A stretch of DNA of 64,000 nucleotides from an uncultured Verrucomicrobiae bacterium (GTDB taxonomy: Bacteria; Chlamydiota; Chlamydiia; Chlamydiales; Rhabdochlamydiaceae): contig CAWFUG010000008.1 in assembly GCA_963818965.1 (NCBI GenBank), positions 351,401 through 415,400 on the forward strand, in the 5' to 3' direction. Made by a program: the position numbers. Positions 41,901 through 44,900 of this stretch are shown here, piece by piece (position 1 is the first letter of the stretch; each line of letters begins with the position of its first letter).

Positions 41901-44900
41901 ATTTTGATTGAAACTTAACGATGTGCACTATACATTTTCCTTCTTATTTTTTGGATTAAAAACCATGTCTTCTGTCTCTGCTTTTCCCCCTTTTGTCGAG
42001 GGGACCCTTTGCTCCCATATCGATACCCTTTACGATCCAGGCTCCTTTGAATATCCCCTTCCTCGTTCCGTCTTGGACACCTATCTCGATGGGAGGGCAT
42101 TGGACCATGAGGAGAGTTATTCAGCAGAGGAAAAGATTTGTCTCGAGCAAGACATCGATGGTCTGTATCAAGCGATTCTCAATAAAAACCCGCTCAAAGA
42201 GCGGAAGATTACCATAACGGCAGGAGTACCCGGCTCTGGAAATACGACGCTCTTGCGAGAAGATCTAGCTAGACAAAGCGCTTTGCTAAATAGAGATATC
42301 GCCTATGTAGATCCCAATGACGTCTATCTTGGAATGATGTGGCAGACCTACCAAGAGGAACTACGGCAAGCGCTCAGCACCCTCAAGCGCTCGGGGTATA
42401 ATTCCCAAGATGAAAAGAGAGTGGCTGAGGATGCGATCCGCCGGGATCTTTGTAGCAAATGGAAACCTGGATCCATGGCAACTAGAGAGCTCGTTTTGGC
42501 TCATTTGATCCGCGGAGGGTATGCGCTCTATTTTGAACCTACTCCGCCCAGTCCTACGGCGCCTACATTTTTCGAATTCCTCAAAAGCCGAGGATACCAC
42601 ATCCGGCTGCTCCATCTGACGACTCCCGATATACTGCGCCCGGTCAGGAATTGCGAACCTGACCGGGCGCAGTATAAGTCCTTTGTCCAAACGACAAGCG
42701 ATGGCAGCTGCGACAAAAAAGACACCTATCTGAAATATGCCGACGAAGTCGAGTTTTATTACCGAGCCGCGTGGGATAAAGGTGCACAACTGGCAGCGAT
42801 TTGGACCAAGACTATTTATGAAGAGCGAGACTCTAATTTAATATGCAAATGGAGCGAGCATGAACTCCGAGTCGTCGATTCTGATGCTTATAAAAATATG
42901 CGACAGCTACACGATGCAATGAGCGAGCCCTGGGAGATTCTAGATCCAGCGTTCTCAGAAAACGACAATACGATCACAACGCATACTCTGCCGACATACG
43001 AGCCATCAGCATGTATTTCTCTTTACACTCATCCCATTTTGAACAATCTCAATCCCCTTGAGTGGAAACATATCTCTGTGAATCTAGATAGGATCGATGC
43101 TTTGACGCTAAAATGGGTAGAAGATGATTCCTTAAAAGCTGCAGATTGGTCAGAAATTCTCCCTAACGGATTGGAAATGAGGGAGCGCGTCGAGTATATT
43201 ATGGGACTGATCTGCATCGATTTTTGTCACTGGGACTTCAAAGAGGACCCGAGTGGGAGCGGTATCCGCCATTTTTATAGCACGGATGATTTAGGGATGA
43301 GAGTCAGAGGTTCCGCCGCGATGACAGCTCTTGCCAAAAAGGCCTATGCCCAAGGTGAGAAAATTTTCGATGCGGCCTTCATGGCAGGTGCCACTGTTGA
43401 GGATCTCCGTCCCTACTTTATGGGTGTTGATGATGAAGCAAATCAGATGGAGATTCCCTTATTAATCGAGCGCATTCACGTTCTAAATGAAGTGGGAACC
43501 ATTCTCCTCGATCAGTGGGGAGGCTCTTTTTACAATGTCCTTTATACAGCACAAACAAGAGCCTTTAACGAAGGGAATGGGTTTGTCGAACTTCTCGTCA
43601 GAGACTTTCCGAGGTTTCGAGATGAATCTATCTACAAGCATAAAAGGATCAAAATTTACAAACTGGCCCAACTCTCTGTGATGGCCCTACAAAGTGCTCT
43701 TGCACGATGCAGTGATTTCCCCTCCTTTACCGATTGCGATACATTGACACTCTGTCCTGATTACCAGTTGCCCAGAAGCCTCCGCGCTTTGGGAATATTA
43801 GAGTATAGCCCAGAGCTAATGACGCTTATCGATCAAGGAAAATTAATTCAGCCTGGTTCTTCTTTTGAAGTCGAGTTGAGAATGGCGACTTTATTTGCCG
43901 GGCAGCAGTTGAAAAACACCATCAATGCACGCCTCACAGAAAAAGGTCTTCCCCCCATCACAGCCCAAAAGCTCGATTTTACGCTTTGGAGCCATGGACG
44001 AGAGCTAAACAGCAACTTTAGCAAACACCATTTAACACGCACGATTATGTATTGAGACTGACCAAAAAAATCTAGAAAAAATCCATCTTTTCAGCTTAGA
44101 GTGAGAACCGAGTGTCGGAAAGGAGCCTGTTGATGAGTATACCCAAGAAGATCTGGATTGCGATTGGTCTCTTGATTCCACAGCTCTCTTTTAGCGCTTG
44201 TGGCGACGAGATTCCGGTGGGGACTTCTGGCCGAGTAGAGCGCACGGGATGGGGTGTAACGGGAGAGCTCCTCTATTGGTATGCGCATGAGCAAGGGATC
44301 GGCTACACCAATCGGCCGGCGGATGTCCTGACGACTGATAACTTCACCAAGGGTTCCGTGGTCAGGCCCTCGTTTGAGTGGGAGCTCGGGTTCCGACTGG
44401 GCACGGGGTATATGCTGAAGGATTGCCAATGGACTTTTCAAGCTGATTGGACTTCTCTCAAGTCTCAAGCGGGTGGGCATAGGAAGGTCGATTCGGGAGC
44501 GCCTGAGTTCTTGGGGAGTTATCCCATTTGGTCCATGGGACCTGATACACTCGTCGGAGACTACATCTCTTCAGCCTCCGTGAAGTGGCATCTCTCTACC
44601 AACATCGTCGATCTATATGCGCAATACAATTACTCCTGTTTTCACGAGCGACTGACGCTGATGCCCTTTCTCGGGATACGCGGGGCCTTTTTGAATCAAA
44701 AACTAAAGGCTAAATACGCGGGGGGAACTTTCTTTACGGGGATCGATGTCAATACACTGCACAGCCACTACGCCTCTGGAGGGCCTCGCCTAGGGCTCAC
44801 TGTAGATTGTTATTTGATCTATGGGTTGGGACTTTTTGGACAAGGAGCTGTGACTCCGCTTTTCGGAAGTATCCATGTGAGACAGAAAGAACAGTATTTG

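Follow-up and report, generated by a model that had tools for sequence, protein, structure and literature searches.

Gene fusions are a classic route to missing partners, and a single gene of an uncultured Rhabdochlamydiaceae bacterium, located in a 64,000-nucleotide stretch of contig CAWFUG010000008.1 (hereafter the window), joins an N-terminal domain resembling zeta-toxin kinases to a C-terminal domain of the Q_salvage family. The question raised by this arrangement is whether the N half is the enzyme that supplies the C half with its substrate. In the account that we draw on (PMC9881137), the kinase making queuosine 5'-phosphate, the substrate of Qng1/QNG1, is described as unknown in any organism. 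A full-text literature search for "queuosine kinase" likewise found nothing, in agreement with the initial annotation of the locus, which considered this enzyme unknown in any organism. The same annotation read the fusion as a two-step device, in which the N half acts on host queuosine and hands the nucleotide to the glycosylase.

One reading frame with two parts

The gene is a single uninterrupted open reading frame, as had been proposed, and the lack of a stop, a start and a signal peptide in the linker (Table 1) shows that the halves were truly fused, through a deletion, and are not two genes joined by read-through. A longer frame of 715 aa, opening at a TTG at 41908, is an alternative; the hydrophobic stretch of this possible extension sits where many members of the N family have a putative signal peptide. 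In the AF2 prediction the linker falls below a pLDDT of 50 at residues 323-343 and 347-360. Q_salvage (PF10343) is the sole Pfam family found in the fusion protein, the N half being without a match even at E 10, and a search of the protein against NCBIfam gave no match.

Four contigs of 151-232 bases from public reads (three soil-metagenome runs of one study, with word shares of 0.05-0.11) are identical to the window; they span 41860-42022, 42698-42929, 43506-43656 and 43900-44050, and codon 93, codon 118 and the junction lie outside them. Among the results of the public-read search there was no RNA dataset matching the fusion gene.

Table 1. Features of the fusion gene, in positions of the window
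Feature	Position	Strand	Remarks
Whole fusion ORF	41965..44055	+	696 aa plus stop; ATG at 41965, stop at 44055, 0 internal stops
Possible 19-codon N-terminal extension, TTG start	41908..41964	+	Short hydrophobic stretch; start not settled
Degenerate zeta-toxin/PezT-like P-loop domain, residues ~10-340	41992..42984	+	Based on alignment of relatives, AF2, Foldseek and Pfam matches of relatives
Walker-A remnant, G87-T94	42223..42246	+	Codon 93 (42241-42243) is AAT = Asn; Lys in 97% of relatives (zeta Lys46)
Codon 118, AAT = Asn	42316..42318	+	Family column 90% Asp; aligns with the zeta catalytic base Asp67
Shortened lid region, residues 244-253	42694..42723	+	9-residue deletion takes out an Arg invariant in 39/39 relatives
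Linker, residues ~335-355	42967..43029	+	No stop, start or signal peptide
Qng1-like (Q_salvage) HhH N-glycosylase domain of the Chlamydiia clade, residues 352-696	43018..44052	+	
HhH catalytic segment, Lys566 (StQng1 K199) to Asp599-Tyr600 (D231, Y232)	43660..43761	+	Includes Ala574 in place of D207
C-terminal Tyr696 (StQng1 Y323)	44050..44052	+	Protein ends exactly on Tyr696

The zeta/PezT-like N-terminal half

An exhaustive search with residues 1-360 returned 174 matches, 105 of them at E values of 1e-10 or lower and 39 at 1e-30 or lower, mostly to proteins of about 290-380 aa; the repeat thus reproduces the figures given earlier for this search (174 and 39). When the aligned relatives were compared with Pfam (E <= 0.01), 37 of the 39 matched Zeta_toxin and 38 matched AAA_33, families that the domain of the fusion itself does not match. 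The AF2 model of the N half has a pLDDT of 83.0 and a pTM of 0.81, with 238 residues at pLDDT 90 or above and values below 50 in the lid at residues 227-250. Searched with Foldseek, this model is most similar to PezT (2p5t; E 8.9e-8, probability 1.00, TM 0.37-0.56), followed by zeta (1gvn/3q8x) and then by the PFKFB kinase domain, PNKP and AvrRxo1 (4z8u). The match to AvrRxo1-ORF1 (E 1.4e-3, TM 0.40-0.43, 12% identity) ranks under those to PezT/zeta and PFKFB. Atlas feature matches of the N half at 0.89, which we treat as a lead only, are all to Zeta_toxin clusters. The model and its closest structural matches support the predicted P-loop fold of the zeta/PezT type on which the earlier reading was built.

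Zeta and PezT toxins (PF06414) are UDP-N-acetylglucosamine 3'-kinases of epsilon/zeta toxin-antitoxin systems. The N half shares with them its best structural matches and, through its relatives, the PF06414 profile, but it differs from them in several respects. It carries Asn at the equivalents of both Lys46 and Asp67 and does not itself match PF06414. No epsilon/PezA antitoxin gene lies immediately upstream, where the neighbour is a divergent SAM methyltransferase gene, and no antitoxin family gene was found on either side of the fusion. The family to which the N half belongs is chlamydial, its members often have putative signal peptides, and they share an additional N-terminal segment that is conserved and about 70 residues long.

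The profile of the N family aligns to zeta residues 17-145 (E 1.1e-6), and in this alignment residue 93 falls on zeta K46 and Asn118 on zeta D67. The replacement of the Walker-A lysine by asparagine, in a motif that reads G-S-G-N-T and keeps the glycine backbone of the P-loop, had already been pointed out and is confirmed at codon level (Table 1). The Asp at position 67 of zeta is described as hydrogen-bonding the hydroxyl of the substrate, and kinase activity is reported to be absent in the PezT mutant D66T (PMC3062530). Over its whole length, the N half retains 41 of the 59 columns that are conserved in at least 80% of the family and has lost 18, which is the fourth lowest score among 40 sequences; the changes at conserved columns include K93N, D118N, K123G, R167K, N171M, G191E, S228R, R236Q, D237Y and D247G. 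The invariant Arg has gone with the lid deletion, which removes 27 bases in frame. Since two independent catalytic substitutions are accompanied by a deletion, a single-base assembly error is insufficient to explain the state of the domain.

Judged by these residues, the N half is very probably not a kinase, and the claim that it phosphorylates queuosine is not supported, in view of the loss of Lys93, the Asn at the position of Asp67, the missing lid arginine and the 18 lost columns. Because it is catalytically degenerate, the zeta-like domain makes a poor candidate for the queuosine kinase that has long been sought, and is unlikely to be that enzyme. Its P-loop glycines are retained and the AF2 prediction still gives a folded domain (pLDDT 83), which leaves room for nucleotide binding or a non-canonical activity.

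The Qng1-like half and its clade in Chlamydiia

The C half matches Q_salvage PF10343 with an E value of 5.6e-54 and 184.1 bits (cut-off 25), residues 406-696 covering model positions 8-285 of 285. Among the reference structures of Qng1/QNG1 (DUF2419), namely 7uk3, 7u07 and 7u91 from Sphaerobacter thermophilus and human 7ugk, a PDB sequence search recovered 7uk3 and 7u07 at about 2e-33 and 7ugk at 6e-29. Membership of the C half in this family, as first annotated, is therefore well founded. The further description of the domain as complete is right as far as fold and catalytic core are concerned; the residues that give Qng1 its specificity for queuosine are not conserved.

The roles of the individual residues were taken from the description of Qng1 in PMC9881137. 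The core of StQng1 (K199, I203, D231, Y232, E267, D298, W302, H316 and Y323) is present in the C half, with Leu in place of I203. It is conserved throughout the clade (22/22) and, depending on the residue, in 32-34 of the 34 bacterial homologues outside it. The HhH lysine K199, the catalytic aspartate D231 and the ribose-stacking tyrosine Y232 correspond to K566, D599 and Y600 and are invariant in both sets (22/22 and 34/34). D298 and W302, which recognize the 7-deazaguanine base, are kept as D671 and W675. The C-terminal tyrosine system is likewise preserved, with Y323 represented by Y696 and its holders E267 and H316 by E635 and H689; the exact end of the protein on Tyr696 fits the mechanism of Qng1, in which a free C-terminal carboxylate is required.

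The substrate-specificity residues, compared through sequence alignments, differ from those of Qng1. The proton relay D69-N72-D207, which contacts the side-chain amine of queuine, is replaced by I416, D419 and A574, and in 22/22 clade members the corresponding residues are I or V, then D, then A. Y93, W94 and W299 of the cyclopentenediol pocket are S450, A451 and F672, and the position of F75 is occupied by His422; the PDB alignment begins at chain residue 62, which places the pocket residues P46, W48 and H53 outside it. Among the phosphate ligands, R80 falls in a gapped insertion, and K233 is replaced by Q601 and Q306 by R679, both in 22/22 clade members; a basic residue is still present. Apart from the positions of W94 and W299, which are variable, the replacements in the proton relay, at Y93 and at K233 and Q306 are fixed throughout the 22 members of the clade. 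The C half is also unlike Qng1 in its overall identity (about 30% in the PDB-search alignment), in an insertion after the F-C-x-W motif, which all 22 clade members share, and in its fusion to a second domain, and many members of the clade, unlike Qng1, appear to bear signal peptides by a crude hydrophobicity test.

The C half retains 108 of the 120 positions that do not vary among the five other clade members compared, which themselves retain 86-97%; this argues that it is not decaying. By its sequence, the C half is a member of a Chlamydiia-specific Qng1-like clade with what appear to be its own queuine side-chain pocket and phosphate site, and it looks active.

Genomic setting and the choice of explanation

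The fusion was found once among 401 genomes of the phylum, being absent from the 400 others and from the long proteins that were searched, and neither half was found in a genome of the same genus that is 89% complete (G355). Q_salvage scores above the Pfam cut-off in six of the 401 genomes, this one included, and TGT is present in 384 of 400; another chlamydial Q_salvage gene, in genome G357, is interrupted by a TAA. At 17 loci in other genomes, members of the N family have no conserved neighbour, with just one homologous pair of neighbouring ORFs, and none is fused to or placed beside a Q gene; the surroundings of the family thus offer no clue to its function. The neighbours of the fusion in the window (transketolase, HicB-like HTH, GNAT, NUDIX, methyltransferase, outer-membrane protein and arylsulfotransferase) have no known link to queuosine.

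The genome encodes the genes for queuine uptake and insertion that the initial annotation had pointed to, yhhQ adjoining tgt on another contig (C9), and queA was not found in it (87.85% complete). In these features it resembles Chlamydia trachomatis, for which import of queuine by YhhQ/QPTR and its insertion by TGT are described (PMC11570991, PMC11130926). That route needs no glycosylase. The present tgt also differs in that a frameshift in a stretch of five A breaks it in two, which points to either a broken salvage route or indel errors in the assembly. Its pocket reads G-G-S-V-G, as long as the published q-type motif GG[LS][AS]G but with a Val in fourth place.

Other members of the clade are joined to kinases of different types. 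A relative with a C half 65% identical to that of the fusion, P0002, carries an APH/choline-kinase-type domain in which the catalytic motifs are present. In genome G037 the clade gene is translationally coupled to a gene of the PRK/uridine-kinase family, its stop codon and the start codon of that gene overlapping in TGATG. The idea of a kinase acting before the glycosylase accordingly survives for the clade, on the evidence of the APH-like fusion and the uridine-kinase operon, but not for the zeta-like domain with which it was originally linked.

The explanation that we favour overall, with a probability of roughly 0.55, is an intact Qng1-like glycosylase fused to a zeta-like pseudokinase. The C half would cleave the base, most likely of the queuine or guanine type, from a nucleoside 5'-phosphate, most probably queuosine 5'-phosphate from the eukaryotic host, and queuine once freed would go on to YhhQ, the transporter, and to TGT. 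The N half would descend from chlamydial zeta-toxin-like P-loop kinases, many of them probably exported, and would have become a pseudokinase by losing its Walker-A lysine, its catalytic aspartate and the lid with its arginine. It would not phosphorylate queuosine and would at most bind a nucleotide or nucleoside or act as a scaffold. Host tRNA decay already gives 5'-nucleotides; a phosphorylation step, if needed at all, would more plausibly be carried out by another kinase.

That the N half might nevertheless be an active nucleoside kinase, phosphorylating host queuosine and passing queuosine 5'-monophosphate to the C half, strikes us as very unlikely. Its fold is that of small-molecule kinases, the same order of kinase-like domain and glycosylase occurs in P0002, and Qng1 is described as acting on a 5'-phosphate made by an unknown kinase (PMC9881137). 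Against these points stand the asparagines at the Walker-A and Asp67-aligned positions, the deleted lid arginine, the loss of almost a third of the conserved columns (18/59) together with the Pfam match, the inactivity reported for PezT D66T (PMC3062530) and the separation of the N family from Q genes at all 17 loci. A dead N half could still bind queuosine or a nucleotide and so concentrate it for the glycosylase, or could regulate that enzyme. This we regard as conceivable though doubtful: 340 residues of open frame have been kept, with a core that is predicted confidently (238 residues at pLDDT >=90), the P-loop glycines are still there and constraint on the C half is normal, but conserved polar residues expected to line the substrate cleft have disappeared along with the catalytic ones, and no second fusion of this kind was found in the 401 genomes of the phylum.

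It is also unlikely that the protein is an exported effector unrelated to the supply of queuine to the bacterium, whose C half would alter nucleotide or queuosine pools of the host. By a crude hydrophobicity test, 9 of the 17 N-family ORFs taken from genomes and 8 of 21 other proteins with the C domain of the clade have signal-peptide-like N termini, which would suit such a role, as would the variable, accessory-like contexts of the N family and the action of zeta and AvrRxo1 relatives on cell-wall or NAD substrates. The fusion protein read from its ATG, however, has no clear signal peptide in the same test, the host already makes queuine from queuosine 5'-monophosphate, so that a secreted Qng1 would do no obvious harm, and the genome has genes for queuine uptake. 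The degenerate N half, the split in tgt at its A5 run, the chlamydial Q_salvage gene broken by a TAA and the absence of the gene from the same-genus genome could all be signs that the fusion arose incidentally, through deletion, in a route that is being lost as a whole. General decay of this kind is distinctly unlikely, given that the C half keeps every core catalytic residue and 108 of the 120 clade-invariant positions, that 2.1 kb are free of stops and frameshifts, and that the frameshift in tgt may itself be an assembly error. A metagenome-type assembly of 12 contigs with at least one probable homopolymer indel (in tgt) invites the suspicion that two genes were joined artificially or that the catalytic codons were mis-called. 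We find this hardly credible, as the junction shows none of the elements that two separate genes would require (stop, ribosome-binding site, start and signal peptide), and the defects of the N half are many and independent and include the 27-base in-frame deletion. The four public contigs agree with the window at every base but leave out codon 93, codon 118 and the junction, and so have no bearing on them.

More speculatively, and in our view improbably, the clade as a whole might mark a two-step route that harvests host queuosine by phosphorylation and then deglycosylation, with a kinase partner that has been swapped at least three times: an APH/choline-kinase-like fusion, an operon partner of the uridine-kinase family and the zeta-like fusion described here. 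In at least three genera of this bacterial family, yhhQ-tgt operons have as their third gene one that encodes a uridine-kinase-family protein with a hydrophobic N terminus, and this protein would, on such a scheme, be the missing queuosine kinase. The present genome has a uridine-kinase-family gene at 464377-464931 of contig C9. Given the smaller pocket residues, the substrate may alternatively be a glycosylated queuosine, and since many clade members and associated kinases carry putative signal peptides, the two steps may take place outside the bacterial cytoplasm. The zeta-like domain would then have been an active partner in the past and would persist as a pseudokinase that binds a ligand.

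The analysis defines a Qng1-like clade of bacteria that live inside eukaryotic cells. Its specificity residues are distinct and fixed, and its substrate need not be plain queuosine 5'-phosphate. We contend that the two other, intact-looking kinases joined to this clade are better and directly testable candidates for the queuosine kinase than the zeta-like domain of the fusion.

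The fusion gene and its zeta-like half

The fusion gene is a single unbroken frame of 696 codons that is already open from TTG 41908, and the GC content of the locus shows nothing unusual. The sole Pfam match of the protein is Q_salvage (PF10343, E 5.6e-54), covering residues 406-696 and model positions 8-285 of 285; the N half drew no match with the threshold relaxed to E 10, and an NCBIfam search of the protein returned none either. The initial annotation had described the gene in these terms, and this description holds, as does its count of N-half relatives: an exhaustive search gave 174 (39 with E ≤1e-30), the majority of them free-standing and about 290-380 aa long.

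The AF2 model of the N half (pLDDT 83.0) is closest to PezT and zeta, followed by PFKFB, PNKP, and AvrRxo1. Aligned with 39 relatives, the N half retains 41 of 59 conserved columns (≥80%), the fourth lowest of 40, with the losses concentrated at conserved polar residues. Substitutions at conserved columns include K93N in the Walker A motif, D118N, K123G, R167K, N171M, G191E, S228R, R236Q, D237Y, and D247G; a 9-residue deletion takes out an Arg found in all 39 relatives, and AF2 confidence falls below 50 at residues 227-250. A profile of the N family aligned with zeta toxin (residues 17-145, E 1.1e-6) places position 93 at zeta K46 and N118 at zeta D67, codons 93 and 118 both being AAT. According to an excerpt of PMC3062530, zeta Asp67 is the proposed catalytic base, hydrogen-bonded to the substrate hydroxyl, and D66T abolished the kinase activity of PezT. 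Unlike most of the 39 relatives (Zeta_toxin 37, AAA_33 38), the N half of the fusion matches neither Pfam family. We conclude that this half is very probably a pseudokinase.

The Qng1-like half and its clade

Among PDB sequences the C half matched Sphaerobacter Qng1 (7uk3, 7u07; E ~2e-33) and human QNG1 (7ugk; 6e-29). Its residues were read off the printed alignment with Sphaerobacter thermophilus Qng1 (StQng1) and matched to the roles given in sections 22, 23, and 27 of PMC9881137. The core is conserved, with K566, D599, Y600, E635, D671, W675, and H689 at StQng1 K199, D231, Y232, E267, D298, W302, and H316, L570 at I203 scored as kept, and the C-terminal Y323 matched by Y696, the last residue of the fusion protein. 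Altered are the proton relay (D69 to I416, N72 to D419, D207 to A574), the ribose/cyclopentenediol pocket (F75 to H422, Y93 to S450, W94 to A451, W299 to F672), and the phosphate site (K233 to Q601, Q306 to R679), with StQng1 R80 falling within a gapped insertion.

A 58-sequence alignment, including 22 close relatives and 34 other bacterial homologues, contained the catalytic core in all 22 and, per residue, in 32-34 of the 34. At the variable positions each group has its own fixed residues, those at 419, 422, 423, 450, 574, 601, and 679 being D, H, W, S, A, Q, and R in every close relative. The close relatives are a separate clade, its members being 48-65% identical to the C half and derived from metagenomes and two MAGs (labelled Chlamydiia and uncultured Chlamydiaceae). 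The C half probably functions as an N-glycosylase whose substrate is a nucleotide of the guanine or 7-deazaguanine type, with plain queuosine 5'-phosphate as a candidate.

With the whole protein as query against 401 genomes of the phylum, 76 gave any match, and the fusion was found in the window's genome only. The clade C half occurs as a free-standing gene in G225 and G037, with a partial match in G357; the other matches listed were confined to the N half, in ORFs that stand alone. Neither half was found in the same-genus genome G355 (89% complete), nor a second N-family copy in the window's genome. Q_salvage scored above cut-off in six of the 401 genomes; the G357 gene is of the canonical type (D69, D207, and K233 retained), has no signal peptide, and is cut in two by a TAA stop.

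Associated kinases and neighboring genes

The sole other ~700-aa fusion among long proteins with the C domain is P0002, a metagenome protein of 698 aa whose C half is 65% identical to that of the fusion. Here a hydrophobic N terminus precedes an APH/choline-kinase-type domain (Pfam APH 9.9e-13, Choline_kinase 6.5e-10) that replaces the zeta-like one; PDB 3dxq and, weakly, NCBIfam small-molecule kinases were also matched, and by eye the domain has catalytic motifs of the H-x-D and D-x-D type. In G037 the stop of the clade gene overlaps, as TGATG, the start of the only PRK/uridine-kinase-family gene of that genome (PF00485, 3.6e-34), whose N-terminal segment is hydrophobic. The order yhhQ, tgt, uridine-kinase-family gene recurs in at least three genera of the window's family, again with a hydrophobic kinase N terminus, and a single kinase gene of this kind is present in the window's genome. 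By the NCBI uridine-kinase equivalog cut-offs, the kinases of the window's genome and G225 lie above and the G037 copy at the cut-off, and these proteins may simply be uridine kinases. Some 90 of 400 genomes contain strong matches to the family, whereas Q_salvage is much rarer; G258 and G333 carry the operon without a Q_salvage gene, and other clade members (L034, L036, G225) have no adjoining kinase. A thymidine kinase gene also adjoins tgt. The G225 clade gene is overlapped at its end by a convergent gene whose product is a HAD-family hydrolase bearing a signal peptide.

In the window's genome (87.85% complete) yhhQ lies next to tgt on contig C9 and queA was not found, which fits the direct queuine salvage of C. 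trachomatis described in part of PMC11570991.

Elsewhere in the window, the final ~130 residues of two tandem paralogues are nearly identical by eye, which suggests recent gene conversion. The HicB-like protein looks like a lone antitoxin-type regulator, no toxin partner having been identified.

Features of the window and of related loci
Feature	Location	Strand	Remarks
Fusion gene	41965-44055	+	ATG start
HicB-like (UPF0150) + HTH_3 protein	39539-39967	+	
SAM-dependent methyltransferase	41032-41928	-	divergent to fusion; signal-peptide-like segment after internal Met start
Tandem paralogue, ~770 aa	47220-49535	-	no Pfam match
Tandem paralogue, ~770 aa	49883-52195	-	no Pfam match
Split tgt, window's genome	C9:404361-405442 (L002 1049-2211)	-	outside window; yhhQ directly upstream, thymidine kinase gene convergent downstream
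Uridine-kinase-family gene, window's genome	C9:464377-464931		hydrophobic N terminus; 59 kb from yhhQ-tgt
yhhQ-tgt-kinase, G225	L083 (C56:865-3428)		one strand, closely spaced
yhhQ-tgt-kinase, G258	L081		one strand, closely spaced
yhhQ-tgt-kinase, G333	L082		one strand, closely spaced
Clade gene, G037	C17 (L008 857-2577)		free-standing; signal peptide
HAD-family hydrolase, G225	L007 792-1508 (L035 6028-6744)		
Q_salvage gene, G357	C44 (L028 1492-2346)		

Explanations of the fusion

In the reading we favor, with a probability of roughly 0.55, the Qng1-like glycosylase would be active, releasing queuine or a closely similar base from a 5'-nucleotide of host origin, and the zeta-like domain attached to it would be dead. 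That the dead domain still captures a ligand is a tentative option, set between the retained fold of the model and the lost polar residues. The proposal of the initial annotation, an active N-half kinase supplying queuosine 5'-phosphate, is weakened by K93N, D118N, the missing Arg, and the low column retention, and we regard it as very improbable, the zeta-like fold notwithstanding. An assembly artefact receives the least credence: several independent defects, including the 27-base in-frame deletion, cannot come from a single sequencing error. Decay of the gene and its salvage route is rather improbable. The tgt of this genome lies in two frames (235 and 189 aa) broken at a run of five A, either a broken route or an assembly indel; the C half keeps 108 of 120 positions invariant among five other clade members, which themselves retain 86-97%, and is thus under ordinary constraint.

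That the protein is an exported effector with no role in bacterial supply is unlikely.

By a crude hydrophobicity test, N termini resembling signal peptides occur in 8 of 21 other proteins of the clade and in 9 of 17 genomic ORFs of the N family, but in 2 of the 34 other bacterial Q_salvage sequences; the same test found no such leader on the fusion from its ATG, and the TTG extension offers a short hydrophobic stretch only. Of the non-chlamydial Q_salvage proteins whose N termini are longer, several (P0005, P0007, P0009, P0010, P0012) have twin-arginine-like leaders by eye, which suggests periplasmic enzymes outside chlamydiae; this group has Ile at the K233 position and lacks the Q306 position. 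Chlamydiae take in host ATP across the inner membrane, and an exported chlamydial kinase would therefore have ATP at hand.

A literature search of freely accessible main texts found no published zeta-like/Qng1 fusion and no published queuosine kinase. The fusion is a variation on the Qng1 theme rather than a new kind of system, and the useful lead is the clade with its intact kinase partners, not the zeta-like family as a kinase.
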